Assembly (NCBI GenBank): GCA_951812955.1
Contig: OX638340.1
Span: forward strand, 2,272,001 to 2,336,000
Direction: 5' to 3'
DNA length: 64,000 nucleotides
Source: an uncultured Gemmatimonadota bacterium
GTDB lineage: Bacteria > JAAXHH01
The notes beneath the pieces are model-generated. The model ran no database searches and was not told the DNA's origin. It saw only the letters and a list, made by a program, of their open reading frames with translations. Position 1 is the stretch's first letter, and every line of letters starts with the position of its first letter. A program made the translations under genes and the position numbers. Of this stretch, positions 21,092 through 61,911 are shown in pieces.

Positions 21092-21266
21092 TATGGACTA
21101 CTTGATCCAGATGCAGCCTACAAATGGTTTTTCAACATCTGATTATGGACTACTTGACGCGACTGATTATGGACTACTTGTGATTATGTACCTTCTGTTC
21201 CAGACGCAGATTAAAATGGGTCCTGGACACGGTTATTCATACCTTCTGGACACGGTTATTCATACC
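21092..21266. repeat. Intergenic short direct repeats. TATGGACTACTTG occurs three times, and a 22-bp unit occurs twice; the second copy contains the stop codon of FtsX-1.
   Basis: The three-copy motif lies at about 21092, 21145 and 21169. The 22-bp copies ggacacggttattcatacct lie at 21221-21243 and 21245-21266. The minus-strand TAA of FtsX-1 is at 21256-21258. Confidence 0.85.
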
Positions 21267-23718: not shown

Positions 23719-23852
23719 GGCGGATCTCCAGCAGCTTAAAACGGGATTTCGTACAGGAAGCAGAAGCCACCCCAACCTTATGCGGACAATATAGTGTTCC
23801 CCTCGACTTTTCGGTACGACATTACAGGCGTAACGCGGCAACCAGGAGCACC

Positions 23853-25697: not shown

Positions 25698-25702
25698 AGC
25701 AG

Positions 25703-25845
25703 CGCATGGATTCATTGCCACATAGGCGCATTGAGGCGTCGCATCAGCACATTGCCGCAAAGATGCATTGGAGCGCCGCGTAAACTCATTGTCGAACAGG
25801 CGCAATGAAGCGGCGCATAGATTTACTGCCGCAAAAGCGTATCGA
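25703..25845. repeat. Degenerate direct repeats of about 30 bp (GCGCAT..ATTGCCGCAAAG motif). They start 6 nt after the glycoside-hydrolase stop and fill the leader of the aminopeptidase.
   Basis: The unit aagcagcgcatggattcattgccacatagg at 25703 recurs as aagcggcgcatagatttactgccgcaaaag at 25808. Intermediate degenerate copies lie between them. Confidence 0.6.
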
Positions 25846-25871
25846 AAACCAACCACGGAGACTTAACACCC

Positions 25872-26987
25872 ATGCACGACCCACGATATGGTGACCTGGC
25901 GAAGGTGCTTACCGGACACTCGACGAAGATCCAGCCGGGAGACCGGGTACTCATCGAGGCCTTCGACGTGCCCGATGAAATGGTTATCTCGCTCATCCGG
26001 ACGATCCGGGAAGCGGGCGGCGTTCCGCTGGTCTCCATCAAGCACCAGCGCGTCATGCGGGAACTGGTCCATGCCGGGGACGAGGCCGCGATGGAAGCCG
26101 CCGGCGCCTTTGAATCCCATCGCATGGAGCGGGTGCAGGCCTACATGGCCCTGCGCGGCAGCCGGAACGTGATGGAGATGTCGGACGTGCCTGGCGAAGC
26201 CATGCGGCTCTACGAGCAACGCTGGCTCAAGCCCGTGCACTTCGATATCCGCGTGCCAAAGACCCGGTGGGTGGTGCTGCGCTGGCCGACCCCGTCCATG
26301 GCGCAGCAGGCCGGCACGAGCACCGAGGCCTTCGAGGACTTCTTCTTTGACGTGTGCACCCTGGATTATGGGAAGATGGAAAGGGCCCTCGCGCCGCTGA
26401 AGGAGCACATGGACCGCACCGACCGTGTCCGGCTCACAGGTCCGGGTACCGACTTGAGCTTCAGTATAAGGGACATCCCCACCGTCGGATGCTCGGGCGA
26501 CCGTAACATTCCCGACGGCGAGTGCTTTACCGCGCCGGTGCGCGATTCGGTCAATGGCGTCATTACGTTCAACACGCCGACGCTGTATCACGGCGTGACG
26601 TTTACGGACGTGCAGTTGAGATTCGAAGACGGCAAGATAGCGGAGGCGAGCGGCAACCGGACGGAGAAGCTCAACGAGATCTTCGACACCGATGAGGGGG
26701 CGCGCTACATCGGCGAATTCGCCATCGGCTTCAATCCCCACATCACCGCGCCCATGCTGGACATTCTCTTCGACGAGAAGATCGCGGGTTCCTTCCACTT
26801 CACGCCCGGACAGGCCTACGAGGAAGCGGACAACGGCAATCGATCCGCCGTGCACTGGGACATGGTCATGATCCAGACGCCGGAATACGGCGGCGGGACC
26901 ATCGAGTTCGATGGGGAAGTAATCAGGAAAGACGGGATATTCGTCGTTCCGGAACTCGAGGGCCTGAATCCGGAACGATTGAGGTGA
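25872..26987 (+). CDS. M29-family aminopeptidase (AmpS/PepS/aminopeptidase T-like).
   Basis: 371 aa. The text ...[16 protein letters not shown]...[12 protein letters not shown]...HWDMV has the same length and metal-binding pattern as thermophilic M29 aminopeptidases. Confidence 0.75.
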
Positions 26988-27029
26988 AACAGGCGCGCTA
27001 CGACGACGCGGAGAAGATCGAAGAAAGTC

Positions 27030-29555: not shown

Positions 29556-29575
29556 GATCTCTATGTGATAAACCG

Positions 29576-29630
29576 GGTACGGTATGGCCTGCAAGGTACG
29601 GTGTAGCCCGCATGGTACGATATGGCCTGC
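29576..29630. repeat. Three tandem 19-bp direct repeats (GGTACGGTATGGCCTGC-like) about 20-75 nt upstream of the TPR-1 start.
   Basis: Copies lie at 29576-29592, 29595-29611 and 29614-29630, with 2-3 mismatches between them. Confidence 0.8.
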
Positions 29631-29704
29631 GAACAAACTGAACCGTCGATCAAAGCGGCTGTTTCCCCACACGTTCGGCGACGCGGGGAAGACCGAAGAA
29701 AGTC

Positions 29705-32125: not shown

Positions 32126-32630
32126 GCCAAACCAACTTGTAGGGGGAAATGACGAAAAGAGATGGAACCTGCTTTAACAGATCCAGGTAATGCCTGCAAC
32201 CTACCCTTATTCGCGGCCACAGTCAAACAAAAGCGGCCTAATCTCGCCGCAGGGTGTCCGCCGGGTTGAGCATGGCGCTTCGGAAGGTATGCACGCTCAC
32301 GGTGAGCAGGGCGGTGGCCAGGACAACCAGTCCCGCCGCGACGAAAGGCGCAGCACCGATCTCCGTCCGGTAGGCGAAGTCCGCCAGCCACTCGTTCATG
32401 AGCCACCAGGCGGCCGGCCAGGCGAGGACGTTGCCGATCACCACGAGGACGACGAACTGCCTCGACAGCAGGCCGACTATATCTGAGACCGCGGCGCCCA
32501 TCACCTTGCGGATGCCGACTTCCCGCGTGCGGCGCGCGATGTCCAGCGACACGAGTCCATATACACCCAGGCAGGCGATCAGCAGGGCGAATACCGCGGA
32601 ATAGGTGAAAATGCGCGCAAGGTTGGCTTC
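31970..32630. repeat. Segment about 97% identical to 36903..37565. It covers the TPR-2 5-prime end, the intergenic region and the FtsX 3-prime end.
   Basis: Direct alignment of the two stretches shows only scattered mismatches across 660 bp. Divergence begins upstream of about 32630 and 37565. Confidence 0.85.
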
Positions 32631-34610
32631 ACCCTCGTAGAATCGGGCGATGTCGTCATCAAGGAAGGAATACTCGAAAAGCGATTCCGGGGCGATCTCC
32701 ATCCATGCCGCTCTCAACAGATCCAACGTGGCAGGCAGGTCCCGCCCGCTGACGCGTACCAGGAGGAAATTAACACCACCCTGGGTTTCCTCCCCGAAGG
32801 AAGCGGGATTCATCGTCAGGATTACCGGCTCTATTTCTTGATGCATCGACTGGTAGTGGTAGTCCTCCAACACGCCGATGACCGTATATCCGTGGGGCAG
32901 GGTCCGTCCGAGGGGGTCGTCCCATTCCATCACCCTGGCCGCGGCTTGGTTGATTATACATGACCCGGATTCGTCGTTGCCGAACTCCCGGGAAAAATCT
33001 CGTCCTGAGACCAGGTTCAGCTCTAGCGCCTTCACGTAATCGTAATCCACCGTGAACATATATGCTTCAAGCTTGTTCCCGTCCTTATCTGTATAGGCGG
33101 ACTGACCCAGGCCCCGACCGAAGGTGTTGGAAGCTCCCGTCACCAGGATTACGTTCTCATACGAGTTTATCCTGGATTTATAGACGTCCGCGGAGTTGGA
33201 ATTGGGCCCCATGTGGATGACGATGACGTTTTCCTTGTTGTATCCCAGATCTGTGTTCATGACGAAGTCCAACTGTCGGGTCATGACGAGTATGGAAACA
33301 ACGAGTAAGGCAGACAGGCCGAACTGGACGACCATCAGGCCGCGGATAACCAGGTTTGGGCTCCCGATCCGAACCTGATGTCTGAATACGGCAACGGGAT
33401 TGAAACGGGAGAGGATCAGGGCGGGATAGCTCCCGGACGCCAGGGCAACCAGGCCAGTCAACACTAGTAGCGCGGCGATCGTAGAGCCGTTGGAGAGATA
33501 ATCTAGGACGTATGAGCTTCCCGCCAGCGTGTTGAATACAGGAAGAAACAGGTGGGCCAGGATAACGCCTAAGATGAGGGCGAAGCAACTCAACACCGCG
33601 GTCTCACCCAGGAACTGTTTCATGATCTGGGTTTTCTGCGCACCGAACACCTTCCGCAGTCCAACCTCCCTGGCGCGCGAAGACGATCGGCAGAAGGCCA
33701 GGTTCATGAAATTCACGCAGGCGATGAAAAGAACGAAAAGCGCCGTGCAAATCAGTATGTAAGACCTGTTGGGATCGCTCGTGGTACCCTGGCCAAACCT
33801 CACACCCTGAGCAAGATACATGTCCGTTAAAGGCTGCAATTCCAGGTATGGCGATCCCATCTGTGAAAAATGAGTCTCGACAAAACCCGGCAACTGGTTT
33901 TCAAGCATGTCTGCCATTTCCGGATCCGACAGCTCGACGTAGGTTGAGGAGACACTGTAGTTCCAATTGCCGATCGCCTGATTCGTCCAGTTGTCGATAG
34001 CAAACATTTTGTCGAAGGGGATCAGGAAATCGAACCGTATGCTGGAATTAACCGGAGTGTTCTCTGCTACCCCGGCCACCAAAAACGGTTCACCTCGTAT
34101 CGTGAGTTGCCTGCCCAGGGGGCTTCCCGTCCCAAAATACTTCTCGGCGGCGGACTGGCTGATCACCACCGAGTTCAGTTCGTTCAGGACCGTCCCGGGA
34201 TCACCTTCGATCAATGGGAAGGAGAACACGCTGAATATCGATGGATCGCTATACAGAACGTGTTCTTCCCGGAACACATCATTACCAACACGGACTTCCG
34301 CCCCTCCGGTGGTTCGTATTCGCACGGTCTGTTCGACGCCGGGATACTGTTCCTTAAAGGCAGCGGCAAGTGGAAGAGGGGTAATCCCACTGGTATATAA
34401 GTTATCCTCGAAACCTGATCCACCGACGTTGACCCGGTAGATCCGGTCCGCCTTCTCGTGAAAGGCGTCGTAGGTCCACTCCTGGCGCACGAAGAGAAAT
34501 ACGAGGAGGCTGCAGGCGATGCCGGTGGACAGGCCCAGCGTGTTGATGAAGAAGTAGCCCTTGTTGCCGAACAGGTGCCGAAACGCGATGACAAGGTGGT
34601 TTTTCAGCAT
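32238..34610 (-). CDS. ABC-transporter FtsX/MacB-type permease (FtsX-2).
   Basis: 790 aa beginning MLKNHLVIAFRHLFGNKGYFFINTLGLSTGIACSLLVFLFV.... It has two FtsX blocks. Its last roughly 130 aa are identical to FtsX-3. Confidence 0.85.
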   Translation of the reverse strand: MLKNHLVIAFRHLFGNKGYFFINTLGLSTGIACSLLVFLFVRQEWTYDAFHEKADRIYRVNVGGSGFEDNLYTSGITPLPLAAAFKEQYPGVEQTVRIRTTGGAEVRVGNDVFREEHVLYSDPSIFSVFSFPLIEGDPGTVLNELNSVVISQSAAEKYFGTGSPLGRQLTIRGEPFLVAGVAENTPVNSSIRFDFLIPFDKMFAIDNWTNQAIGNWNYSVSSTYVELSDPEMADMLENQLPGFVETHFSQMGSPYLELQPLTDMYLAQGVRFGQGTTSDPNRSYILICTALFVLFIACVNFMNLAFCRSSSRAREVGLRKVFGAQKTQIMKQFLGETAVLSCFALILGVILAHLFLPVFNTLAGSSYVLDYLSNGSTIAALLVLTGLVALASGSYPALILSRFNPVAVFRHQVRIGSPNLVIRGLMVVQFGLSALLVVSILVMTRQLDFVMNTDLGYNKENVIVIHMGPNSNSADVYKSRINSYENVILVTGASNTFGRGLGQSAYTDKDGNKLEAYMFTVDYDYVKALELNLVSGRDFSREFGNDESGSCIINQAAARVMEWDDPLGRTLPHGYTVIGVLEDYHYQSMHQEIEPVILTMNPASFGEETQGGVNFLLVRVSGRDLPATLDLLRAAWMEIAPESLFEYSFLDDDIARFYEGEANLARIFTYSAVFALLIACLGVYGLVSLDIARRTREVGIRKVMGAAVSDIVGLLSRQFVVLVVIGNVLAWPAAWWLMNEWLADFAYRTEIGAAPFVAAGLVVLATALLTVSVHTFRSAMLNPADTLRRD

Positions 34611-34686
34611 GATCGTTTTGCCTCCTGTCGCTTACGAGCTGTAAGCCGGAAAACGTTCCTGAGGAAACACGATCTTGGAATGGCAA

Positions 34687-34719
34687 AGGGGATCTACGGT
34701 TTCGACCCGTCGATCCCCT
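34687..34719. other. Hairpin with an 8-bp stem (AGGGGATC / GATCCCCT) and a 17-nt loop, between Big_2-1 and FtsX-2. It is repeated at 39617-39649 with a 9-bp stem.
   Basis: Sequence aggggatctacggtttcgacccgtcgatcccct. There is no strong U-tract, so it could be a weak terminator for the Big_2 gene or a regulatory element for the FtsX gene. Confidence 0.35.
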
Positions 34720-34779
34720 GAAAAGTTGCATGTTGGTAACTATTGCGATGCCGGAACTTACGTAGTGCATTCCCGACTG

Positions 34780-36381
34780 TCAGTCAACGACAAACGTGTT
34801 TTCACTACGGCGAAAACTCCTATCATCGCCAAACGAAACATCATAAACCAGTCTATACTCACCGGCGACTTCCGGATCGTATGGGCAAGCGTCGAATTCC
34901 ACCCGTGTGGCCTCGATGTCTTCCCATGTACTGCCCATATCGTCGCTTCGCTGCCATACGGAGTAATGGACCGTCATGGGGATACCTAACGGCTGAGTTG
35001 GGTAGTTGTTTAGTTCAGCACGAAAGAGTGAACTTGCACAGTATTCTATAGTTATAGGAGTATATCCTGGTCCCGTGAATATCAACTTACCGGGCTCGAC
35101 CTTCCAACCTTCCCACGGGACATAGACTATCTCGTCGACTGGCTCGTCGACGCCTTCGCCGCCATCCCCGCCATCCCCGCCTTCACCACCTTCCCCTTCA
35201 GTCGGAACCATGACCGTGATACTCACCATGGCCGACACGTCGCCGGACGCGGCCGTGACTACGGCCATGCCGTTGCCCACCGCTTCTACCAATCCATCCT
35301 CGTCCACGGTGATCACGTTTTCGTCACCGCTCGTCCACGTGACGGCCGGTTCGGCAATGGCATTGTCGTTCCCGTCGCTGACGGAAACCATGAGTTGCAG
35401 GGTCTGTTCGATCTCGGTCAGCGTGGTGGCATCGGGTGCGACCTCGATGCTGATGCCGGCCGGAACCTGGGCGACGGTGATCGACGCAGTCCCCATAGCG
35501 TCTCCGGCCTGTGCCGTGATCTCCGCCATGCCGTTGTCCACCGCGGTCACAAGCCCGTTCTCGTCCACGGTGGCCACGGCGTCATCGGCGCTTGACCAGG
35601 TCACCATCACGTCCTCCATCGCGTTTTCGTGCTGGTCCAGCACGACGGCCGCGAGTTCCACGGTGTCGCCGATCGCTTCCAGCGTGTGCGCAGCGGGCTC
35701 GATCGTCAGGCTCGTCGGCACGGATACGGATACCGTGATGGACGCACTGGCGGACAGGCTGCCGGATGTGGCCGTGATCTCAGCCATCCCGTTACTCACC
35801 GCCGTTACAAGGCCCGCCCCGCTCACGGTCGCCACGGCGTCGTCGCCGCTCGACCAGGTGATGGACTGGCCGGACATGATGTTGTTCCGCTGATCCCGCA
35901 CCGTAGCCGACAACTGTACCGTTTCCCCGATCGCCTTCAGCGTATGGGACGTCGGTGCGACCGTGATCCGGGTCGGCACCGGCTCGGCCACCGTGATGTT
36001 CGCAGTGCCCGTCGCGTTGCCGGACTGCGCCCTTATTTGCGCGGCGCCGTTGGCCACGGCCGTCACCAGGCCATTTCCGCTGACAGTCGCCACCGCGGTA
36101 TTGCTGCTCGACCAAGTCACCGCCTGGCCGGTCATCGGATTGTTGTTCTGGTCCCTCACCATGGCCATCAGTTGCACGGTCGCGCCAATCGTCGCCAGCG
36201 TGTGCGAAGACGGCGTGACAGAAATGCTCGTCGCAACGGGCGCAGGCGGTGGAGCAGGCGGGGTCGGTGTGGACGGCTCGGGACTCGTCGGGCTGCTGTC
36301 CCCGCCACCGCATCCCGCCAGAAAAACCAGGTACAAGGATGCCGTGATCTTGGCGAACACGCGACTGTATGGACCAAACAC
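34780..36381 (-). CDS. Surface lipoprotein with four Big_2 (bacterial Ig-like group 2) domains, a Gly/Glu/Asp linker and an unclassified roughly 125-aa Cys-containing C-terminal domain (Big2-1).
   Basis: GTG start with an AAGGAG ribosome-binding site. It begins MFGPYSRVFAKITASLYLVFLAGCGGGDSS (lipobox), followed by a Pro/Thr linker. Four repeats carry the Big_2 signature (..TVQL.A.V.DQ.NN.M.GQ..TWSS....VATV...GLVTAV.NG.A.I.A..). The C-terminal domain reads VPWEG...CASSL...VHYSVWQRSDDMGSTWEDIE...DACPY.PEVAGEYRLV. Confidence 0.8.
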   Translation of the reverse strand: MFGPYSRVFAKITASLYLVFLAGCGGGDSSPTSPEPSTPTPPAPPPAPVATSISVTPSSHTLATIGATVQLMAMVRDQNNNPMTGQAVTWSSSNTAVATVSGNGLVTAVANGAAQIRAQSGNATGTANITVAEPVPTRITVAPTSHTLKAIGETVQLSATVRDQRNNIMSGQSITWSSGDDAVATVSGAGLVTAVSNGMAEITATSGSLSASASITVSVSVPTSLTIEPAAHTLEAIGDTVELAAVVLDQHENAMEDVMVTWSSADDAVATVDENGLVTAVDNGMAEITAQAGDAMGTASITVAQVPAGISIEVAPDATTLTEIEQTLQLMVSVSDGNDNAIAEPAVTWTSGDENVITVDEDGLVEAVGNGMAVVTAASGDVSAMVSITVMVPTEGEGGEGGDGGDGGEGVDEPVDEIVYVPWEGWKVEPGKLIFTGPGYTPITIEYCASSLFRAELNNYPTQPLGIPMTVHYSVWQRSDDMGSTWEDIEATRVEFDACPYDPEVAGEYRLVYDVSFGDDRSFRRSENTFVVD

Positions 36382-36463
36382 TGCTGTCTCCTTTCGGCTA
36401 ATTACTGAAAAGCGGTTCGTTGTAATCTACCGTTCTTGATCTCGATGAACAGATTATCTGACT

Positions 36464-37057
36464 TCATGCACGCAGGCCCTTCATACTCTCCCGGGCCGCT
36501 TCGAGGGTCCGGTCGATGTCTTCTTCGGTATGGGCCAGGGACACAAACCCCGTTTCAAGGCGCGAAGGCGCCAGGTAGACGCCCCGGTCCAGCATATTCC
36601 AGAAGTATCGCCCGTACGTATCCGCGTCTGACGTGGAAGCTGCATCGAAATTGTTGACGGTCTGATCTGTGAAGAAGGTACACATCATGGAGCCCACACG
36701 GGTCAGGCAGGCCGGGACGCCGGCCGCTTCCGCCGCGGCGCGAAGGCCGTCGCCGAGGCGGGCGGCCAGGGATTCCAGCCGGTCGTAGACCCCGGGTTCC
36801 TGAAGCTGCCGCACCGTTTCATATCCAGCGGTCATGGCAAGCGGATTGCCGGACAGCGTGCCGGCCTGGTAAACCTCACCGGCGGGCGCCACGGTTTCCA
36901 TGAACTTTTCCTGGTCGAATAGCGCACGTCCCGCTTCCAGGGGAGTCCGCTGGCCGGTTTCAGCGACTGTATCATCTGCGGTGGATTGGGCCTGGAGGCG
37001 ACCCTGCATGAGAAAAACGAGCAGGACCGCTACCAGAAGTACAGGGTATCTGGTCAT
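36464..37057 (-). pseudogene. Chimeric in-frame ORF. The TPR-2-type promoter, ribosome-binding site and signal peptide (50 codons) are fused to the C-terminal 147 codons of hemL. It is the junction product of the tandem segmental duplication.
   Basis: The N-terminus MTRYPVLLVAVLLVFLMQGRLQAQSTADDTVAETGQRTPLEAGRALFDQEKF equals the start of the 29705..32125 gene. The remainder, METVAPAGEVYQAGTLSGNPLAMTAGYETV...MKGLRA, equals the end of the 41855..43144 hemL gene. The breakpoint is at about 36903. Confidence 0.7.
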
Positions 37058-37169
37058 GGCAAACCAACTCGTAGGGGGAAATGACGGAAAGAAATGGAAC
37101 CTGCTTTAACATATGCAGGTAATGCCTGCAACCTACCCTTATTCGCGGCCTCAGTCAAACAAATGCGGC

Positions 37170-39541
37170 CTACTCGCTCCGCAGGGTGTCCGCCGGGTTG
37201 AGCATAGCGCTTCGGAAAGTATGCACGCTCACGGTGAGCAGGGCGGTGGCCAGGACAACTAGTCCCGCCGCGACGAAAGGCGCAGCACCGATCTCCGTCC
37301 GGTAGGCGAAGTCCGCCAGCCACTCGTTCATGAGCCACCAGGCGGCCGGCCAGGCCAGGACGTTGCCGATCACCACGAGGACGACGAACTGCCTCGACAG
37401 CAGGCCGACTATATCTGAGACCGCGGCGCCCATCACCTTGCGGATGCCGACTTCCCGCGTGCGGCGCGCGATGTCCAGCGACACGAGTCCATATACGCCG
37501 AGGCAGGCGATCAGCAGGGCGAATACCGCGGAATAGGTGAAAATCAGCGCCAGGTTGTTCTCATCCTGGTAGAACCGTTCTATATCGTCTTCCATGAAGA
37601 AATACTCGTAGGGCGTCTCAGGCGCTGTCCCCTTCCACGCGTCCTCGAGCAGGGAAAGCGTGGTTGGCAGATCCCTGCCGCTGACCCGGACCAGGAGGAA
37701 GCCGTAACTGACCGAAGTGTTACCCATGGATGTGGGATTGAGGGAGAGTATAATCGGATCGATCTCCTGGTGCAGCGACTGGAAATGGAAGTCCTTGACT
37801 ACGCCGATTACCGTATACCCATGGGGCAGTTTGCGCCCGATCGGATCTTCCCATTCCAGCTTCTTTGCCGCGGCCTCGTTGATGATGCACGATTGGAACT
37901 CGTCGTTTACGAATTCGCTGGAAAAATCACGGCCACGGACGAGGTTCAGTTCAAGCGTCTCCAGGTAATCGCGGTCCACGGTCGCCATGAACGCTTCCAG
38001 CTTGTTTCCGTCCGGTCGGTGTAGGCAACCTGGGGCAAGAAATGCCCCTGACCAAAGGTGCTGGAAGTGCCGGAAACCAGGAGTATGTCTTCGTACGGTA
38101 TCACTTTGCTGCGAAAGATCTCCAGGTCGTTTGAATTGAAGGGGGCCTGGATGACTACCACGTTGTGCGGGTTGAACCCCAAATCCCCCGTCCGCACAAA
38201 GTCCAGCTGCCGGGTCATGATGAGAATTGAAATGACGAGCAACGCGGACAACCCGAACTGCACGACCATCAAGCCGCGCACGAAGAGATTCGGCCCTCCG
38301 ATCTGAACCTGTTGCCGGAAGATGGTGACGGGGTTGTAGTGTGAGAGCACCAGGGAAGGATAACTGCCGGAAACCAGGGCGACCAGCACGGTCAAACCCG
38401 TCAGCGCGGCCAGCGTGGATCCGTTCGTCAGGTAGTCCAGCACGAGGGACTTTCCCGCCAGCATATTGAAAACCGGAAGGAACAGGTGGGCCAGGGCCAC
38501 GCTCAGCACCAGGGCGAAGCAGCACAGCGCCGCGGTTTCGCCCAAGTGCTGTCCCATGATCTGGGTTCGGCGCGCGCCGTAAACTTTCCTGACACCGACC
38601 TCTTTCACACGCGAAGACGAACGGCAGACGGCCAGGTTCATGAAGTTGACGCAGGCGATGAATAGTACGAGCAGCGCCGTGCAAATCAGGATGTAGGACC
38701 GGTTGGGATCGCTGGTGGGACCCAGCCCGAATTTGACTTCCTGATCCAGGTAGATATCGGTGATGGGTTGCAGGATCAGATAGGGCGACGAGTAGGCCGG
38801 GAAATGGGTTTCGACGAATTCCGGCAGTTGACTGAGGAGCGATTCTACTCGATCCGGATCCCCGAGTTCGATGAAAGTGGCCGTGGACGAATAGTTCCAC
38901 TTTCCGATGGCATTCGATATCCAGGGGTTTATTTCCGGCGCCTTGTCAAAGGGTATGAGCAGGTCGAACCGAATACTGGAGTTATCCGGTCCGTTCTCCG
39001 CGACGCCGGTTACGGTCAGCGGAATGCCCTGTACCAGGAGCGTCCTGCCCGTCGGAGACTCCTGGCCGAAGTACTTCGCCGCGGCGGATTTGCTGACGAC
39101 CACTGAATTCGCCTCGCCGAGGGCCGTACCGGGATCGCCTTCGATCATCGTGAAGGAGAACATCTCGAAGAAGGACGGATCGCAGAAAAGGGCGTTCTCC
39201 TTGCGGAACGTATCTTCTCCGATGCGAATATCGGATGGATATTCCGTTATGCGCACGGTCCGGACCACGTCGGGATATTGCTGCTCCAGGGTAGCCGCGA
39301 GCGGGAGGGGAGTTCTCGCGCTTATGAACGGGTTGTCGTCGAAATCCACTCCACCGGCTGCGACCTGGTAGATCCGGTCCGATTTCTCGTGGAAGGCGTC
39401 GTAGGTCCACTCGTGGCGGACGAAGAGAAAGATCAGGAGGCAGCACGCGATACCGGTCGACAGGCCAAAAGTATTGATGAAGAAATAACCCTTGTTGGCG
39501 AACAGGTACCGCAACGCGATGACGAGGTTGTTTTTCACCAT
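37170..39541 (-). pseudogene. FtsX/MacB-type permease paralog (FtsX-3) disrupted by a single-nucleotide deletion near 38012.
   Basis: The N-terminal 531-aa ORF (37946..39541) and the C-terminal ORF (37170..38900) overlap in different frames. Restoring one G in cgggac (expected AYTDRDGNKLEA, as in FtsX-2 AYTDKDGNKLEA) gives a continuous roughly 790-aa protein. This could be a real pseudogene or a homopolymer sequencing error. Confidence 0.7.
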
Positions 39542-55050: not shown

Positions 55051-56244
55051 ATGCCGCCATCAAACCTCGAAAACAGCCCTGGCCTCCTCCTGCGTGGGGG
55101 GACCGTCGTGGACCCGTCGCAGGATCTGAACCGGGTATGCGATGTCTCCATTTGCGGCGGTTCGATTTCGGCCGTAGGCGACGGCCTGCCAGTGGAGGGC
55201 CGACGCGTCCTCGACGTATCCGGCCGCTACGTCTTTCCCGGACTGGTCGACCTGCACGCCCACATCTGCTGGGGATTCACCGACATCGGCCTGGTTCCCG
55301 ACGACGTCTGTCCCTCCACCGGCGTAACCGCTATCGTGGACGCCGGAAGCTCTAGCTGGCCCAGCCAGGAGGCCTTCCGCCGCAACGTTGCGGAACCTTC
55401 CAGGACCCGGGTTTTCGGCTTCTCCAACATCTCGAGCGTGGGCATCCCGACGGCGGGCACTCCCGAACTGGCCAGCCTGCGGTTCGTGGACGTGGACCGT
55501 TCCGTGACCGCCGTAGCCGGCAATCGGGACCTGATGACCGGTATCAAGGTAAGACAGGGCCGGCACCTGGTGGGCGACAATGGCGTCGAGCCGACGCGCC
55601 TGGCGGTAGAGGCCGCCGAACAGCTCGGCGTCCCGGTCATGGTCCACGTGGGCAATACGCCGTGTCCCCTCGGCGGCATTATGGACCTGCTTCGGCCAGG
55701 CGACATCATCACGCACGCCTATCACGGCCATCCCCACGGCATTCTGGACGACCACCGGGCCATTTGGGAGGACGTCATCGAGGGACGTTCCCGGGGCATC
55801 CTGATGGACGTGGGACACGGCGCAGGCAGTTTCAGCTTCGACGTGGCCAAAGCGGCCTTCGAGCGGGGGTTCTTCCCGGACGCCATCAGCACGGACCTGT
55901 ACACCGTAAACGTCAATGGCCCGGTTTTCGACTTGCCGACCACCATGTCCAAGATGCTTAACCTGGGCATGCCCCTCACGGACATCGTGGAGAGTACGAC
56001 CACCATACCGGCCGCGGCGATCGGGCGCACGGAACTCGGCACGCTCCGGCCGGGCGCGTCGGCCGACGTGGCGGTCTTCGTAAAGGAGGAGGGCGAGTTC
56101 GAATTCACCGATTCGCACGGGGAACGCCGGATATGGCCGCGGCGCCTGGCCTGTGAAATGACCCTGCTGGACGGGGAGATCGTATTTGACCGGGAACGAT
56201 CCGCACGTCCGTCATTGGACGTCAACAACGGGGAAAACGCGTAA
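55051..56244 (+). CDS. Amidohydrolase-superfamily metallohydrolase (dihydroorotase / D-aminoacylase-like).
   Basis: ...GLVDLHAHI... is the HxH metal ligand, followed by a downstream His/Asp pattern. Length is 397 aa. Confidence 0.7.
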   Translation: MPPSNLENSPGLLLRGGTVVDPSQDLNRVCDVSICGGSISAVGDGLPVEGRRVLDVSGRYVFPGLVDLHAHICWGFTDIGLVPDDVCPSTGVTAIVDAGSSSWPSQEAFRRNVAEPSRTRVFGFSNISSVGIPTAGTPELASLRFVDVDRSVTAVAGNRDLMTGIKVRQGRHLVGDNGVEPTRLAVEAAEQLGVPVMVHVGNTPCPLGGIMDLLRPGDIITHAYHGHPHGILDDHRAIWEDVIEGRSRGILMDVGHGAGSFSFDVAKAAFERGFFPDAISTDLYTVNVNGPVFDLPTTMSKMLNLGMPLTDIVESTTTIPAAAIGRTELGTLRPGASADVAVFVKEEGEFEFTDSHGERRIWPRRLACEMTLLDGEIVFDRERSARPSLDVNNGENA

Positions 56245-56879
56245 TGAAAACCAGATACTGGGTGGGCGGTTGTCTATCCGCGATCATTCTGCTCGCCGTA
56301 ATCGCAGGCGCAACCTACTATTTTCTCCTCCAGGCGAGCGATGAACTGGTCGAGACTTACACGAGTCCGGAGCCCCGCGATTTCTCCCGCACTGAGTCCC
56401 GTGTAGAGAAGGGTCGGGAAGAAGCGCTGTCGGCAATCGAACGGTTCAGGGATTTCATCTTTGCGCTTGAGACGGGCGAAGATACCGAAAGCTTTTCGCT
56501 GTCTGCGGACGATATCAATGCCCTCCTCGAGCAAGAGGATCTGTTCAAAGAAATCCACGGGATGGCGCGCGTGGACATCCAGGATGACAAGCTTCAGGCC
56601 GAGATCAGCGTGCCCCTCGGCTTGTTCAACGATCGATTCGAAGGCCAATACCTGAACGGTACAGGCGAACTCTCCATCGAGATGAAGGACGACCGGCTGG
56701 AGGTCACCATCGACCGGCTGGAGGTCGGCGGCAGAGACATTCCTGCAGAATTCATGAATGAAATCCGTAAAAACAACCTGGTGGAAACCCTGTACCGGGA
56801 GCCGGCTCTGGATCGATTTCTACAAATGGTGAAGGACGTGAAGATCGAAGACGGCCGGCTCGTTATCCAACCCAGGTAG
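56244..56879 (+). CDS. Hypothetical membrane-anchored protein.
   Basis: It has an N-terminal transmembrane helix (GGCLSAIILLAVIAGATYYFLL). Its start overlaps the amidohydrolase stop (TAATG). No family was recognised. Confidence 0.5.
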   Translation: MKTRYWVGGCLSAIILLAVIAGATYYFLLQASDELVETYTSPEPRDFSRTESRVEKGREEALSAIERFRDFIFALETGEDTESFSLSADDINALLEQEDLFKEIHGMARVDIQDDKLQAEISVPLGLFNDRFEGQYLNGTGELSIEMKDDRLEVTIDRLEVGGRDIPAEFMNEIRKNNLVETLYREPALDRFLQMVKDVKIEDGRLVIQPR

Positions 56880-56911
56880 GATCCGGACCCTCGCGCCGTG
56901 GAAACAACGCC

Positions 56912-57757
56912 ATGCCCATCCTCCTCGCCATCGCCCTGCACGCGGAAGCGCGGCCTGTGATCGAGCGATTCCGATTGAAGCAGGACGCATCCTTCGACCT
57001 GCCCGTTTTCCGGCGGGACGAGGTCTGGCTTACCGTGACCGGTACGGGACGCATGAAGTCCGCCATCGCGACCACCTGCCTGGTCACCCGGATTGAAAGA
57101 GATGAGCGAACGGTCATCTTCAACCTCGGCGTCGCCGGCCATACGCAGAAGGCGGAGGAGGGACCCGTCAAGGTCGGGGACCGGTTCCTCGCGAACAAGA
57201 TCACGGAGCAAAGCACCGGCCGATCCTTCTATCCCGACCTGCTGGCGAGGACGCCCCTGGCGGAATCCGCGGTCACGACCGTGGAACGTCCCCTGGACCG
57301 GGCGGACGCCGGCGCCGTCGAGCCGGGCCTGGCCGACATGGAAGCGGCCGGATTCTTCCAGGCGGCGGCGACCTTCCTCCCGCCCCACCGGATCGGCTGC
57401 GTCAAGGTCGTTTCCGACCACCTGGAAACGAGACGCTTCGACAAGGACTGGATAAGTGAACTGATCGCGGGATCCCTGGACGATTTCGAGGCAGCGATCG
57501 CGGCTTACAGGACGATCTCCGACGGGGAACCGGACGCGTTGACCGACGCGGACGTGCGCGTCGTGGAAGACATCCGCGACCGGCTGCGACTGACGGCCAG
57601 CCGGCACCGGATGCTGTCCGACCTGGTGCGGTCTTACAAGCTACACACCGGCTCGGACCTGCCTGACCTCACACGGATCTCCCAGGTCTCCGTCAAGACG
57701 AAACAGGAAGGCGATGCAGAATTTGAAAGACTACGCGGCATCCTCTCGGTGGAATAA
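56912..57757 (+). CDS. PNP_UDP_1-family nucleosidase (MTA/SAH/5-prime-deoxyadenosine nucleosidase or futalosine-hydrolase-like).
   Basis: MPILLAIALHAEARPVIERF... and ...NLGVAGHT... match the Pfs/MqnB-type nucleosidase fold by pattern. Confidence 0.5.
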   Translation: MPILLAIALHAEARPVIERFRLKQDASFDLPVFRRDEVWLTVTGTGRMKSAIATTCLVTRIERDERTVIFNLGVAGHTQKAEEGPVKVGDRFLANKITEQSTGRSFYPDLLARTPLAESAVTTVERPLDRADAGAVEPGLADMEAAGFFQAAATFLPPHRIGCVKVVSDHLETRRFDKDWISELIAGSLDDFEAAIAAYRTISDGEPDALTDADVRVVEDIRDRLRLTASRHRMLSDLVRSYKLHTGSDLPDLTRISQVSVKTKQEGDAEFERLRGILSVE

Positions 57758-58754
57758 CTTCTCCCACCTCTATGTCGAGCGCGGCGCAGACGAATACTCG
57801 CTCACCCGGCGCATACGGGATCGTTTTTCGAAAGCCCGCGTGGTGGAGATCGACGACTACAAGGCGGTCTTCGCCCGGCCGCGTCAGCGGTTCCAGGCAC
57901 AAAAGGAGACCATGAAACTGATCCTGGCCGTGAAGAAGGACCGGTTCCTGTACGAAGGGTCGGGGAACAGCCAGAACTTCAACCTCGAGGATTTCTACTA
58001 CAACACGCTTATGTTCAATTGCGTGTACAACTGCGACTACTGCTACCTGCAGGGCATGTATCCATCGGCGAATATCGTGGTTTTCGTGAACCTGGAGGAC
58101 TACTTTAAGGCGACGCGCAGGGCCATACGCGAGAGGTCGAACCCCTCGCAGCCGTTTTACCTGTGTATCTCTTACGACACCGACCTGCTCGCTTTCGAGT
58201 CGGTCGTGCCCTATTGCCGCGCCTGGATAGAATTCGCCCGCGAGGAGCCGGACCTGCTCGTTGAAATCCGTACCAAGAGCGCCGCGTACCGCGCCATCGG
58301 GGACCTGTCGCCTTCAGAACGCGTCATCCTGGCGTGGACCCTGTCCCCCGAACCGGTCGCCGCACGCTTCGAACACGGGACGGCGCCGCTCAATCAGAGG
58401 CTGGACGCCGCCCGGTCGGCCATTGACGACGGCTGGCCGGTCCGTCTCTGCTTCGACCCGGTCCTCGCCGTTCCGTCCTGGGAGTCCGTTTACGGAGACC
58501 TGGTCGAGGAGGTCGTCCGGCGGATCGAGCCGGCCGCCGTTCGAGACGTGACCGTGGGCGTCTTCCGATTGTCGAAGATCCATTATCAGCGCATGAGACG
58601 TTTGCGGCGGGATACGCCGCTTCTGTACGACGAATACGTACAGGAGGGCACGACCGTGACCTACACGGCCGAACGGCGGGAGGAGATGACCGCCTTCATG
58701 CGGCAGCGCCTGGGAGACCACTTCGAAGAGGAGCGAATCGTCACATGGACGTAG
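57714..58754 (+). CDS. Radical SAM enzyme of the spore photoproduct lyase (SplB) family.
   Basis: The CxxxCxxC motif sits in the context FNCVYNCDYCYLQG; the B. subtilis SPL has the comparable motif. The N-terminus (MQN...) and overall length are also SPL-like. Confidence 0.65.
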   Translation: MQNLKDYAASSRWNNFSHLYVERGADEYSLTRRIRDRFSKARVVEIDDYKAVFARPRQRFQAQKETMKLILAVKKDRFLYEGSGNSQNFNLEDFYYNTLMFNCVYNCDYCYLQGMYPSANIVVFVNLEDYFKATRRAIRERSNPSQPFYLCISYDTDLLAFESVVPYCRAWIEFAREEPDLLVEIRTKSAAYRAIGDLSPSERVILAWTLSPEPVAARFEHGTAPLNQRLDAARSAIDDGWPVRLCFDPVLAVPSWESVYGDLVEEVVRRIEPAAVRDVTVGVFRLSKIHYQRMRRLRRDTPLLYDEYVQEGTTVTYTAERREEMTAFMRQRLGDHFEEERIVTWT

Positions 58755-59464
58755 CACTGGTCACCGGCGCTTCATCCGGAATCGGCCTGGCCATCGCCGC
58801 GCGCCTGGTCGAGTCGGGCTACAACGTATACGGGTATGCCCGCGACCACGGGAAGACCTCCTACCGCCACGCCCGGTACAAACCCGTCGAATGTGACGTG
58901 ACCGATACCCGGGTGCTGCTGGATCGCACCGAGGATTTGCTCAAGGAAACCGGGGGACTGAAGGTCCTGGTCAACAACGCCGGTGTGGGGTTCTTCGGTC
59001 CCCATGCCACCATGGCGCCCGGGCGGATAGAAACCATGGTGCGGACCAACCTGATCGCGCCCATGGTCCTGACCCGGGCGACCCTGCGGCACCTGGAGGC
59101 CTCGCGGGGGTATGTCGTCAACATCGCTTCCACCGCCGCGTTGAATCCCGGTCCCTTCGGCGCGGCCTACGGCGCCACGAAGGCCGGCCTCCACCAGTTC
59201 GGCCAGGCGCTCTTCAGCGAGGTGCGGAAGAGCGGCGTCCGGGTGGTGACCCTGTACCCGGACATGACACGGACGCCGTTTTACGACGGGGCCGACTTCG
59301 AACCCGGCGAGGAACCCGGCACCCACATCACGCCCGAGTGCGTGGCCGACGCCGTTGCACAGGCCGTGGACCAGCGGGAGGGGACGGTGATCACGCAGAT
59401 CGTCATCAGGCCTCAGCGGACGCAAGTCGTCCGCAAGGGAAAGCCGCGGCGGGAGAAGGATTAA
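58745..59464 (+). CDS. SDR-family short-chain dehydrogenase/reductase.
   Basis: TGASSGIG is the Gly-rich NAD(P)-binding motif and YGATKAG is the catalytic YxxxK. It overlaps the upstream gene stop. Confidence 0.85.
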   Translation: MDVALVTGASSGIGLAIAARLVESGYNVYGYARDHGKTSYRHARYKPVECDVTDTRVLLDRTEDLLKETGGLKVLVNNAGVGFFGPHATMAPGRIETMVRTNLIAPMVLTRATLRHLEASRGYVVNIASTAALNPGPFGAAYGATKAGLHQFGQALFSEVRKSGVRVVTLYPDMTRTPFYDGADFEPGEEPGTHITPECVADAVAQAVDQREGTVITQIVIRPQRTQVVRKGKPRREKD

Positions 59465-60465: not shown

Positions 60466-61911
60466 TTGAGTCAGCGTGTAATCGCCATGCCGGCCGGCCG
60501 TTGCGATCTGGGCTTCGCACGGATCGATATCACCCCGCCCGAGGGGATATACCACCGCAGCTGGGGCGCGGCGAAGCATGACGCGTCCACGGGCGCACAC
60601 CGGGAACTGACCGCTTCCGCGCTGGTCTTCGTGGATCCCGGTTCGGGGGTGGAACACGCCCTCGTCGTCCTCGAACTGGGCTGGCTGCAGGCCGTCGACC
60701 TGCAGCGTCTTTCGGATACCGTCTCTTCCGGTTCGGGCCTGCCCGCCGAACGCGTCGTCATCACCTTCTCCCATACCCACGCCGCGGGCAACTACGATCC
60801 GGATCGACTGGAGCACGAGGGCGGCGCGCTGATCCCGGGATACCTGGACGAACTCGGCAAGGGACTGGCCGGCCTCGTGGAAGATGCCAGGGCCGCCGTG
60901 CTGCCGGTCGACCTGGCCTTCGGGCTCGGCCGCTGCGACCTGGCGTTTAACCGTGACTACTGGGACGCGGAAAACCGGCTGTATGCCTGCGGGACCAACC
61001 CGGAACGAGCCGCCGACGACACGGTCGTGGTCACGCGCGCCAGCGACCGGGAAGGCGGGTTGGTCGTCACCCTCGTCAACTATGGCTGCCATCCCACGAC
61101 CCTGGCCTGGGACAATACGCTGATCAGCCCCGACTACCCCGGCGCCATGCGGGAGGTCGTGGAACGGGAAACCGGCGCGCCCTGCGTGTTCATGCTGGGC
61201 GCAAGCGGCGATCTCGGTCCGCGGTACGGGTTCGTGGGCGAAACGGCGGCGGCGGACCGGAACGGCCGTCAGCTGGGCTATGCCGCGCTGTCGGCCATGG
61301 AGTCCCTGCTGCCTGACGGCTCAGAAATGCATTACGACGGCCCCGTGATATCGGGCGCCACCATAGGGGTCTGGCTACACAGCCCCATGGATGCCGGACG
61401 CGCCCGGCGGCTCGAAACCTTCGACTCCTCCGTGATGACGCTGGACCTGCCCCTGCTGGACCTGCCCACGCAGGCGGAACTGGACCGGCAGCTTGCCGAA
61501 TGGATGTCCCGCGAAGAAACCGCCAGGCGGGACGGGCGAAACCGGGAAGCCGCCGATTGTCGCGCCCGCATTGAACGGGTTCGGCGGACCATGCGGCGCG
61601 TCGAAAGCATTCCGCCGGACAGAAAGTCCGCCCCCTACGGTGTCACGCTCTGGCGCATCGGCGAAAGCGTCCTCGTGCTGGTCAGCGGCGAACCCTACAG
61701 CGTGTTCCAGCGCGAACTCAGGGCGCGCTTTCCGGCTACCGCCATCGTCGTGGTCGTCCTGTGCAACAGGGGAACGGGCGGTTACCTGCTGCCCGCGGAC
61801 GACTACGGCAAGGGCCTCTACCAGGAAGAGGCCGCGTCGATCGGTCCGGGCGGGCTCGAAGCGGCGACCGACGCGATTGCGCGGCAGCTTGCAGCCTGGG
61901 GCCTGAAGTAG
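60466..61911 (+). CDS. Neutral/alkaline ceramidase-like superfamily hypothetical protein.
   Basis: 481 aa. ...LVFVDPGSGVEHALVVLELGW...TFSHTHAAGN...NYGCHPTTL... weakly matches the bacterial ceramidase-like N-terminal domain. Low confidence. Confidence 0.4.
   Translation: MSQRVIAMPAGRCDLGFARIDITPPEGIYHRSWGAAKHDASTGAHRELTASALVFVDPGSGVEHALVVLELGWLQAVDLQRLSDTVSSGSGLPAERVVITFSHTHAAGNYDPDRLEHEGGALIPGYLDELGKGLAGLVEDARAAVLPVDLAFGLGRCDLAFNRDYWDAENRLYACGTNPERAADDTVVVTRASDREGGLVVTLVNYGCHPTTLAWDNTLISPDYPGAMREVVERETGAPCVFMLGASGDLGPRYGFVGETAAADRNGRQLGYAALSAMESLLPDGSEMHYDGPVISGATIGVWLHSPMDAGRARRLETFDSSVMTLDLPLLDLPTQAELDRQLAEWMSREETARRDGRNREAADCRARIERVRRTMRRVESIPPDRKSAPYGVTLWRIGESVLVLVSGEPYSVFQRELRARFPATAIVVVVLCNRGTGGYLLPADDYGKGLYQEEAASIGPGGLEAATDAIARQLAAWGLK

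Follow-up and report, generated by a model that had tools for sequence, protein, structure and literature searches.

The nucleosidase gene and the radical SAM gene analyzed here are at the centre of a self-contained cassette of three genes, which has been passed on as a unit in at least 11 phyla. The radical SAM enzyme has the fold of spore photoproduct lyase (SPL), and the residues with which SPL binds and repairs the photoproduct are replaced throughout its family, which suggests that it is not an SP lyase and would catalyze a different reaction. By analogy with HpnH/HpnG and MqnE/MqnB, the cassette may process an adenosyl adduct; this reading is preferred here, tentatively.

Within the window, i.e. 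the whole stretch of 64 000 nucleotides that was analyzed, the nucleosidase, radical SAM and SDR genes follow one another on the + strand with overlapping ends (Table 1), and AGGAAGG lies upstream of the ATG of the radical SAM gene. The overlap of 44 nt between the nucleosidase and radical SAM genes, reported in an earlier reading of the sequence alone, was confirmed. That sequence-only reading had also placed the pair in an operon with peptidase and amidohydrolase genes, but only the SDR gene accompanies the pair beyond close relatives. The possibility that the M48 peptidase, amidohydrolase, 211-aa, MOSC and ceramidase-like genes belong to a functional operon with the pair was rejected, since this arrangement is limited to 11-12 close Latescibacterota loci and 1-2 others. 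The genomes nearest to this locus are Latescibacterota MAGs. No sporulation genes are found among the annotated genes of the window, in agreement with the earlier remark that sporulation hallmarks are absent.

Table 1. Positions of the cassette genes and their main features in the window.
Feature	Positions	Strand	Remarks
Nucleosidase gene, 281 aa	56912..57757	+	MTAN-fold catalytic domain (approximately residues 1-200) and family-specific C-terminal helical domain
Nucleosidase Glu12 codon	56945..56947	+	Corresponds in the alignment to the water-activating Glu12 of E. coli MTAN
Nucleosidase loop TGRSFYPD, residues 102-109	57215..57238	+	Family-specific
Nucleosidase Met143-Glu144	57338..57343	+	Corresponds to MTAN Met173-Glu174 (ribose binding); VDMEA aligned to VEMEG/A
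Nucleosidase Ser168-Asp169	57413..57418	+	Corresponds to MTAN Ser196-Asp197; KVVSD aligned to RAISD/RAMSD
Nucleosidase C-terminal helical domain, residues 205-281	57524..57754	+	Matches no known family
Overlap of nucleosidase 3' end and radical SAM 5' end, 44 nt	57714..57757	+	Translational coupling
Radical SAM gene, 346 aa, SPL fold	57714..58754	+	PF20903 member; neither SplB nor TIGR03886 equivalog
[4Fe-4S]/SAM motif CVYNCDYCYLQ	58020..58052	+	C103, C107 and C110 aligned to SPL C90, C94 and C97
Radical SAM Tyr154	58173..58175	+	Invariant; aligns with the SPL hydrogen donor Cys140 (MAFFT, G. thermodenitrificans SPL)
Radical SAM C-terminal beta-hairpin VQEGTTVTY	58638..58664	+	Strands 309-311 and 314-316 in the model
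Overlap of radical SAM 3' end and SDR start, 10 nt	58745..58754	+	
SDR gene, 239 aa, classical	58745..59464	+	Third cassette gene; adh_short 143 bits
SDR motif TGASSGIG	58763..58786	+	
SDR motif NNAG	58973..58984	+	
SDR motif YGATK	59168..59182	+	

The survey covered 80 loci from about ten phyla, with radical SAM proteins that are 42-92% identical. The nucleosidase gene lies directly upstream of the radical SAM gene on the same strand in 76 of these loci, and an SDR homologue lies directly downstream in 42. A search that started from the nucleosidase led to three distant loci (25-28% identity, including Campylobacterales), and all three carry the triad in the same order. In most of the 80 loci the nucleosidase and radical SAM genes overlap or lie no more than 3 nt apart; these values are upper bounds, since genes were taken from their first in-frame start. 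Where the SDR is present, its gene mostly overlaps the radical SAM gene by 4 or 10 nt. The sequence-only reading had allowed that the pairing might not be conserved in other genomes, that the radical SAM protein might belong to another family such as the Mqn enzymes and that the nucleosidase might be an unrelated PNP; none of these proved to be the case, and the pairing extends well beyond the source genome.

In a census of 101 flanking genes no other family proved to be enriched, and nothing exceeded 6-8 loci. Some neighbours appear to be lineage-specific, such as a MiaB-like gene that flanks the cassette in Opitutales, a VOC/glyoxalase-type isomerase gene directly upstream in eight loci, and flanking UDG and PNPOx genes (four each; 101 genes surveyed). 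No fusion of nucleosidase and radical SAM protein was seen among the matches listed. PADLOC returned zero matches for the nucleosidase, the radical SAM protein, the SDR and the 211-aa neighbour, and this result together with the syntenic housekeeping context ruled out an anti-phage defence system. No paper on the pairing or on the clade was found in the literature.

The AF2 model of the radical SAM protein (pLDDT 90, pTM 0.89) matched 4fhc in Foldseek over 343 columns (TM 0.80, 21% identity, E = 4e-21); 4FHC/4FHD is the structure of Geobacillus thermodenitrificans SPL, and to our knowledge SPL is the only one of its fold family to have been characterized. PFL-AE follows as the second fold at a TM of 0.45, and the protein is SPL-like rather than an Mqn enzyme (TM 0.35 to MqnE). 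It belongs to PF20903 (77.2 bits over residues 18-285, with a gathering threshold of 27 bits), as do 120 of 120 of its homologues among the matches listed. Its scores fall below the cut-offs of both the SplB model TIGR04070 (85.1 versus 400 bits), to which all 22 family members tested gave weak matches (best E = 5.6e-28), and TIGR03886, the model for SPL-family proteins of non-sporeformers (62.5 versus 437.55 bits). The family is therefore a third clade inside PF20903.

The likeness to SPL comprises the whole-length fold, the CxxxCxYCYLQ motif with both tyrosines, the SAM Lys and Ser/Thr, the C-terminal hairpin and PF20903 membership. C103, C107, C110 and Y109 are invariant in 29 family members; Y109 and Y111 correspond to SPL Y96 and Y98, with position 111 occupied by Tyr in 26 members and by Phe in three. 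K188 corresponds to the SAM-carboxylate lysine K174 of SPL, and T209 to S195. Other invariant residues are Y49, F53, R55, K64, Y80, E162, E184 and R186, as well as W208, E220, R229, W241, R244, D248, R285 and R298, the polarity of which suggests a polar substrate. Unlike splB, the gene adjoins a nucleosidase gene, and it occurs mainly in non-sporulating phyla. The SPL-type assignment in the sequence-only reading thus holds for the fold, the superfamily and the cluster motif, but not for the residues that handle the lesion.

In the MAFFT alignment the column of SPL Cys140 holds Tyr in 29 of 29 family members, whereas HMMER shifts the gap by two residues and SPL C140 then meets I152, beside the non-conserved C151, which is replaced by Ala in many members. 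The column of SPL S76, where the Clostridial Cys is located, holds Ser in 27 and Asn in two of the 29. A fourth conserved Cys as a hydrogen-atom donor is absent from both the C140 (MAFFT) and S76 columns in these 29 members. Phosphate is bound in SPL by Arg273 and Lys309. The columns of SPL R273, R304, Y305 and K309 hold N/S/T, T/V/I, G/D/E/N and a gap in a region where the sequence alignment is weak, and the invariant Arg285 lies two residues off the R273 column in this weakly aligned region. The C-terminal hairpin is three residues shorter than that of SPL, with a polar or acidic tip that lacks Arg304 and Tyr305. Furthermore, the lesion-base-binding residues of SPL, Arg193, Glu268 and Tyr339 (PMC3467042), are replaced by Ala (29/29), by Gly (29/29) and by variable residues (T/V/A/I). 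A genuine SP lyase was ruled out by the HMM score and these replacements.

Action of the radical SAM enzyme on some other DNA or RNA lesion or base, with the nucleosidase and SDR as accessories, is improbable. The full-length SPL fold including the C-terminal hairpin would suit such a role, as would the basic character that many members share with SPL (in Opitutales pI ∼9 and net charge +8 to +11), the long histone-H1-like K/R/A/P tails of Verrucomicrobiota cassette SDRs, which are specific to this gene (control of 204 ORFs), and the links of other SplB-like families to SOS and UDG systems (PMC3323433, PMC3765255). However, the lesion-base residues are lost, the hairpin is altered and the phosphate-binding Arg/Lys columns, although weakly aligned, are substituted in register. 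In addition, the pI of the window protein and of close relatives is nearly neutral, at 6.2-8.7, repair genes are not enriched nearby (UDG in 4/101 flanking genes), and the cassette contains a hydrolase of free-nucleoside type and an SDR without an obvious repair role. SPL places the pyrimidine C5-C6 bond 3.9 Å from the 5'-carbon of SAM. It is conceivable, but very improbable, that this scaffold was repurposed to adenosylate an unsaturated carbon, possibly of a DNA or RNA nucleobase, with the nucleosidase and SDR cutting the adduct back until a C-linked ribosyl or pentitol group is left and the verrucomicrobial SDR tails tethering the system to nucleic acid. If this were true, HpnH and MqnE would be joined by a third adenosylating radical SAM family of independent origin, and the modification would be of a new kind.

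The upstream protein is a nucleosidase of Pfs/MqnB type, as had been proposed, with the MTAN fold and counterparts of the catalytic Glu12, Glu174 and Asp197, the last of which protonates adenine N7 in MTAN. Among 77 family members, Glu is found at position 12 in 75, Met at position 143 in 75, Glu at position 144 in 76 and Asp at position 169 in 75. The scores fall below the MtnN/Pfs cut-offs (PRK05584, 18.9 versus 169 bits; PNP_UDP_1 in Pfam, 19.5 versus 25.1 bits) and also below that of MqnB TIGR03664, the top curated-model match (32.2 versus 124.7 bits). The protein is roughly equidistant from the MTAN and MqnB models, with all scores far under the family cut-offs. It is only 13-19% identical to MTA/SAH nucleosidase (Pfs/MtnN), from which it differs by a shorter catalytic domain, a family-specific TGRxYYPD loop, an additional C-terminal helical domain of 77-90 amino acids and the fixed position of its gene beside the radical SAM gene. 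In the loop, P108 is conserved in 74/77 members, D/E109 in 77/77 and R/K104 in 64/77; it probably occupies the place of the MTAN loop that lines the 5'-substituent pocket. The C-terminal domain carries a conserved LRLT-x-[ST]Q motif, and its last helix a K-x-E...F-x-x-LR pattern.

MTAN hydrolyzes 5'-deoxyadenosine and relieves product inhibition of radical SAM enzymes. A rival explanation, almost as probable as the preferred one, is that the co-translated nucleosidase hydrolyzes this inhibitory by-product where the SPL-like enzyme produces it. The radical SAM enzyme would then use SAM stoichiometrically, the nucleosidase would perhaps dock via its C-terminal domain, and the SDR would either handle the true product of the radical SAM enzyme or be unrelated. 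The MTAN fold with its intact catalytic triad is in keeping with by-product clearance, as are the MTAN-like residues by the ribose 5' position (L9, V/T/I45 and M143), and the tight translational coupling and near-universal co-occurrence fit a 1:1 partner. However, the conserved SDR, the TGRxYYPD loop and the C-terminal domain of the nucleosidase are left unaccounted for. A scavenger would be dispensable given a housekeeping MTAN, yet the gene is kept in 96% of loci despite deep divergence. In Campylobacterota a housekeeping MTAN serves menaquinone synthesis, so a pure scavenger would probably be redundant there. Furthermore, SPL needs no such partner: the canonical enzyme acts without a dedicated nucleosidase, and B. 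subtilis splAB lacks one. We know of no characterized case of a nucleosidase dedicated to 5'-deoxyadenosine clearance for one radical SAM enzyme, and no nucleosidase dedicated to clearing the by-product of one such enzyme was found in the literature.

In HpnH/HpnG and MqnE/MqnB, the two characterized pairs known to us, nucleosidase partners of the MTAN/PNP family that work with a specific radical SAM enzyme process covalent adenosyl adducts rather than the by-product. The cassette protein is a classical SDR, with TGxxxGxG, NNAG and the catalytic Ser...YxxxK, and may favour NADP(H). In the preferred model of adduct processing, the SAM-derived 5'-deoxyadenosyl radical would add to an sp2 carbon of the substrate, beyond mere hydrogen abstraction, and the adduct radical would be quenched by the invariant Tyr154 at the position of the SPL hydrogen-donor Cys. 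The nucleosidase, with its intact MTAN triad, would then hydrolyze adenine from the adenosyl adduct, and the SDR would reduce the ribose carbonyl released in this step, yielding a product with a polyol tail. The frequency and constant order of the three genes, from the 76 upstream nucleosidases and 42 downstream SDRs in the 80 loci to the three distant triads, are consistent with this sequence of steps, as is the Tyr that is invariant at the Cys140 position in the MAFFT alignment. There is also a precedent in HpnH, where the 5'-dA radical joins an olefin, an active-site residue quenches the resulting radical and the PNP homologue HpnG strips adenine, while the subsequent reduction to the tetrol in the hopanoid route has no assigned enzyme (PMC13459092).

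The comparison with HpnH/HpnG is one of analogy: both systems combine a radical SAM enzyme with a nucleosidase of the MTAN/PNP superfamily, and the chemistry of HpnH/HpnG relies on a protein residue as the radical quencher and requires that the ribosyl group be reduced afterwards. However, the cassette radical SAM enzyme has the SPL fold and gave only SPL-type models in NCBIfam, the nucleosidase matched only models of MTAN or futalosine-hydrolase type and none of HpnG, and neither squalene-hopene cyclase nor other hpn genes are present in the window or the annotated flanks. The nucleosidase resembles MqnB in that TIGR03664 is its best curated match and in that its structural neighbours include Helicobacter pylori futalosine hydrolase/MTAN and Chlamydia CT263. 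With MqnE/MqnB the cassette may also share the principle that adenine is trimmed from an adduct derived from 5'-dA, but the radical SAM enzyme is unrelated to MqnE and the nucleosidase has its added domain. In the survey of 101 flanking genes, the top 25 families (each with at least two members) include no Mqn family. Membership of the cassette in either the Mqn or the Hpn enzyme pairs was ruled out by family scores, fold and the NCBIfam scans.

Several points weigh against the adduct model. The SPL lineage is known for hydrogen abstraction only, and no sequence signature tells addition from abstraction. No acceptor, tailoring or transport genes are linked to the cassette in any lineage, which is odd for a biosynthetic route; the adjacent SDR is missing from about half of the loci; and the nucleosidase lies about as far from the MqnB as from the MTAN models.

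Salvage or catabolism, which we consider unlikely, would use the same enzymes in another order. The nucleosidase would first split an adenosine-type nucleoside, such as MTA, 5'-deoxyadenosine, SAH or a modified adenosine, the freed base or 5-substituted ribose would be the substrate of the radical SAM enzyme, acting as a radical lyase or isomerase, and the sugar-derived product would be completed by the SDR. PhnI/PhnJ and queuosine hydrolase/queuine lyase are precedents for such a route, although their nucleosidase families are unrelated. A compact and self-sufficient cassette with random neighbours is typical of a salvage module, the gene order puts the nucleosidase first, and chemistry of the SPL type consists of a lyase reaction in which the hydrogen is returned. 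The invariant residues of the radical SAM enzyme are rich in aromatics and in Arg, Lys, Glu and Asp, as in sugar- and nucleotide-binding sites, and the upstream VOC/glyoxalase-type isomerase gene of eight loci would also fit. However, recycling SAM by-products at the cost of SAM would be worthwhile only if the use of SAM were catalytic. In addition, the cassette has no linked kinase, isomerase or transporter gene, and nothing points to a particular nucleoside.

This work defines a large clade of SPL homologues (2208 matches in one search) that is marked by a nucleosidase partner, usually an SDR, and specific active-site substitutions, which together argue against photoproduct repair. The clade includes the cultured organisms Leptospira gomenensis, L. 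ellisii, Thermobrachium celere and Caloramator proteoclasticus, so that its function can be tested directly. If the adduct model is true, the clade would represent a new adenosylating radical SAM family and would provide a candidate type for the unassigned ribosyl-to-polyol reductase step; if by-product clearance is true, the nucleosidase would be the first scavenger of 5'-deoxyadenosine to be dedicated to one radical SAM enzyme. Under both models, the current annotations 'spore photoproduct lyase', 'DNA photolyase' and 'hypothetical protein' are misleading.

The nucleosidase and the spore photoproduct lyase (SPL)-like radical SAM protein (rSAM) are encoded by overlapping open reading frames, both of which an ORF check of the window located where the sequence-only reading had placed them, and are followed by the gene of an SDR of the classical type, in which the catalytic motifs are present. 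An AGGAAGG sequence precedes the ATG of the rSAM frame. Genes for an M48 peptidase, an amidohydrolase and a 211-aa protein of no family lie 5' of this triad on the same strand, and those for a MOSC protein and then a weakly ceramidase-like protein lie 3'. In a simple scan no terminator-like sites were found between the three cassette genes, and the sole plus-strand site of the gene run lies inside the peptidase gene. An antisense frame that overlaps the nucleosidase gene was unsupported as a real gene and was treated as a GC-rich artefact; a gene caller choosing the longest ORF would take the wrong strand here.

The 211-aa protein has no match in Pfam, NCBIfam or PADLOC, and its gene starts on the final base of the stop codon of the amidohydrolase gene; the protein is kept in close Latescibacterota relatives, with a weaker homologue (37% identity) in one further locus, L016. 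The ceramidase-like match covers the N-terminal half of neutral ceramidase, and every close relative has this gene beside the one for the MOSC protein. The ten large upstream ORFs annotated (Lon, HemA, MacB/FtsX permeases, TPR proteins, ROK-domain, rhamnosidase-like and Ig-domain proteins) include no sporulation genes, in agreement with the claimed lack of sporulation hallmarks. Two paralogous TPR proteins are interleaved with the MacB/FtsX-type permease genes.

Features of the window and of related loci (L numbers are fetched loci of relatives, each with its own coordinates)
Feature	Position	Strand	Remark
MacB/FtsX-type permease genes (three)	21259-23859, 32241-34610, 37173-38900	-	within 21256-38900
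Paralogous TPR proteins (two)	27033-29672, 29708-32125	-	~800-880 aa
211-aa protein	56244-56879	+	hydrophobic N-terminus; between amidohydrolase and nucleosidase
Antisense ORF	56594-57607	-	337 aa, longer than the nucleosidase (281 aa)
Nucleosidase	56912-57757	+	281 aa
rSAM	57714-58754	+	346 aa; shares 44 nt with nucleosidase ORF
SDR	58745-59464	+	239 aa; 10-nt overlap with rSAM ORF
Weakly ceramidase-like protein	60466-61911	+	481 aa; sub-threshold, 21 bits against a 32-bit cut-off
Loci without nucleosidase	L053:4931-5992, L056:4943-5992, L066
Nucleosidase homologues with losses among the catalytic residues	L075:5088-5960, L078:701-1468		upstream of rSAM
Triads in Campylobacterales MAGs	L085:7492-10789, L086:7521-10795
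MiaB/RimO-type arrangement	L020, L022-L024, L029-L032, L035, L046; also L002, L004		e.g. L029:7276-8673, 8683-9222
Tailed SDRs	L020:6990-8288, L023:6990-8216, L024:6993-7916, L025:6993-8075, L043:7619-8935, L045:6990-8567
VOC genes	L033:4749-5171, L038:1735-2163, L040:1248-1661, L041:2693-3115, L044:4745-5170, L050:371-790, L055:4426-5187, L064:4762-5184

A pattern scan with one genome per species gave 563 confirmed rSAM relatives, the best 80 of which were fetched (42-92% identity); the sample reaches down to about 42% identity, with more distant PF20903 members outside it. The nearest genomes, with identity up to 92%, are MAGs of Latescibacterota, some of which bear a Gemmatimonadetes label. 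The other loci come from Zixibacteria, Verrucomicrobiota (Opitutales, Lentisphaeria), Bacteroidota/Balneolales, Marinimicrobia, Spirochaetota, Bacillota (Thermobrachium celere, Caloramator proteoclasticus and a Paenibacillaceae MAG), Vulcanimicrobiota, Bdellovibrionales and others; the cultured spirochaetes Leptospira gomenensis and L. ellisii (L070, L080) have the complete triad.

The pairing is kept in other genomes: a full-length same-strand nucleosidase homologue is present in 77/80 loci and lies directly upstream of rSAM in 76/80, mostly with an overlap or a gap of a few nucleotides and never with a gap above 175 nt. It lies 2.9 kb away in one locus and is absent from three; in two Leptospiraceae MAGs that lack it, a gene for a 354-aa alpha/beta hydrolase (PGAP1-like) is found upstream of the SPL-like gene instead. 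An SDR homologue directly follows rSAM in 42/80 loci, usually overlapping by 4 or 10 nt. All-against-all clustering of every flank ORF gave no other family beyond single lineages, and a Pfam census of 101 immediate neighbours gave none in more than six. Furthermore, a search from the nucleosidase side recovered three distant homologues at 25-28% identity, two of them in Campylobacterales MAGs and the third on another contig, and at each locus the gene order is nucleosidase, SPL-like protein, SDR. The pair and the SDR recur whereas the other neighbours are lineage-bound, and therefore the conserved unit is limited to a cassette of three genes within the longer run in the window. The wider operon described by the sequence-only reading does not hold as a unit: the peptidase and amidohydrolase genes, like the 211-aa, MOSC and ceramidase-like genes, travel with the pair only in close Latescibacterota relatives. 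The cassette genes are shown to be inherited together and translationally coupled.

Some lineages have neighbours of their own. Downstream of the triad, the two Campylobacterales MAGs carry fliD together with a Polysacc_synt_2 dehydratase gene and a DegT aminotransferase gene, both typical of flagellin glycosylation sugars. In Opitutales, ~250-450 nt separate the cassette from two same-strand genes 3' of it, one for a methylthiotransferase of the MiaB/RimO type (UPF0004, Radical_SAM, TRAM) and one for a hypothetical protein of 179 aa. This second radical SAM enzyme, the substrate of which is tRNA or a ribosomal protein, is probably there by lineage synteny.

The rSAM protein belongs to the Pfam family PF20903 SPL (77 bits against a cut-off of 27), whereas it falls below the cut-offs of the SplB equivalog model (85 against 400) and of TIGR03886, the SPL-family model of non-sporeformers (62 against 437); 22 diverse relatives score likewise. 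An AlphaFold model built from 29 family sequences (pLDDT 90, pTM 0.89) matched Geobacillus SPL over its whole length (TM-score 0.80, 21% identity), the next fold being PFL-activating enzyme (0.45). Since SPL is the best structural match and MqnE reaches only 0.35, rSAM is, as modelled, an SPL-fold protein, and the alternative of a Mqn enzyme is excluded.

The Geobacillus SPL sequence was aligned to the rSAM family, with the functional residues (hydrogen donor, SAM ligands, base and phosphate contacts) taken from the structure paper (PMC3467042). The three cluster cysteines (CVYNCDYCYLQ, residues 103-113; CMGHCHYCYLQ in Geobacillus SPL), Y96 and Y98 are kept, as are the SAM-carboxylate ligands (SPL K174 as K188, S195 as T209). 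In contrast, the position of the hydrogen donor C140 is Tyr in 29/29 members, although HMMER alignment moves it two residues, onto a non-conserved Cys/Ala; S76, the Clostridial alternative position, is still Ser. The base-binding residues are replaced (R193 by Ala and E268 by Gly, both 29/29; Y339 is variable), K309 becomes T/V/I, and the hairpin is three residues shorter, with G/D/E/N for its Arg-Tyr tip. R273 is N/S/T in register, yet an invariant Arg lies two residues off. The pI is 6.0-9.3 in the family and 6.2 for the window protein, against 9.26 for SPL. The scaffold and cluster motif of the proposed SPL-like enzyme stand; by the alignment, rSAM has kept the radical machinery of SPL and lost its photoproduct site.

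The window nucleosidase by itself matches PNP_UDP_1 below threshold; however, a profile of 26 family members finds MTANs (MTA/SAH nucleosidases) in the PDB (E 3e-9). In the alignment E12 falls on the catalytic Glu of MTAN, VDME corresponds to VEME (Glu174) and KVVSD to RAISD (Asp197), which dismisses an unrelated PNP. The curated models matched were futalosine hydrolase (25/26), PRK05634 'nucleosidase' (25/26) and MTAN (24/26), all with scores far under cut-offs. Unlike MTAN, the family has an extra C-terminal helical domain (~77-90 aa, LRLTx[ST]Q motif), confined to it in a search of 1.84 billion representatives and matching no family or solved structure; a TGRxYYPD loop is likewise conserved and family-specific. 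NCBI records label these nucleosidases 'hypothetical protein'. From its residues, the nucleosidase appears to be an active adenosine-type hydrolase. Catalytic residues have changed in two homologues (E12 to I and D169 to G; E12 to L, E144 to S and D169 to T), both still placed upstream of rSAM; these may be pseudo-enzymes, or their ORFs may be miscalled. If the losses are real, they suggest a structural role for the nucleosidase as well.

No dedicated curated model matched either protein, neither is a member of the Hpn or Mqn families, and the literature searched held no description of the clade or the pairing. The cassette joins two known kinds, SPL-superfamily radical SAM enzymes and nucleosidase-assisted radical SAM systems. 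To our knowledge, an MTAN/PNP-family nucleosidase serves one particular radical SAM enzyme in two characterized cases, HpnH/HpnG and MqnE/MqnB, in which an sp2 carbon receives the 5'-deoxyadenosyl radical and adenine is cut from the resulting adduct by the nucleosidase. Four reaction models were considered; the gaps in probability are modest, resting mainly on precedent and on the number of conserved parts explained. Adduct processing is put forward tentatively, by analogy: rSAM would add the radical at an sp2 carbon, after which the nucleosidase would strip adenine from the adduct, with Tyr154 in a radical-quenching role and the SDR in ribosyl reduction. In hopanoid synthesis the radical is quenched by a residue of the protein, and no enzyme has been assigned to the ribosyl reduction that comes later (PMC13459092). 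The slight lean of the nucleosidase to futalosine-hydrolase models is a point for adduct processing. By-product clearance, as first proposed, in which the nucleosidase removes 5'-deoxyadenosine made by rSAM, is compatible with the fold, catalytic residues and gene coupling; however, we found no precedent for it, it does not account for the SDR, the extra domain or the conserved loop, and it is somewhat doubtful.

In eight loci, mostly Bacteroidota-labelled MAGs, the next gene 5' of the nucleosidase, in the same orientation, encodes a VOC/glyoxalase-family protein (~140 aa, Glyoxalase_4), which gives a four-gene arrangement. This, the compact, context-free cassette and invariant rSAM residues resembling a sugar site favour a salvage route in which the nucleosidase acts first and rSAM is a lyase on the freed sugar or base, as in PhnI/PhnJ and queuosine hydrolase/queuine lyase; such a route is considered unlikely. 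In six Verrucomicrobial (Opitutales) loci, the SDR bears a disordered, strongly basic K/R/A/P-rich C-terminal tail of 70-290 aa of histone-H1 type, with AKKA repeats in L043 and L045. Among 204 control ORFs of at least 150 aa from 20 such loci, K+R made up at least 30% of some 60-aa stretch in six, five of which were the cassette SDR. The tails hint that the SDR may be tethered to nucleic acid or another polyanion and are a point for nucleic-acid repair or modification, which is nevertheless improbable given that the lesion contacts of SPL, and apparently its phosphate contacts, are lost.

The rSAM clade is large, widespread, mis-annotated and accessible to experiment. What SPL homologues do outside spores is a long-standing question, on which this clade has a bearing.
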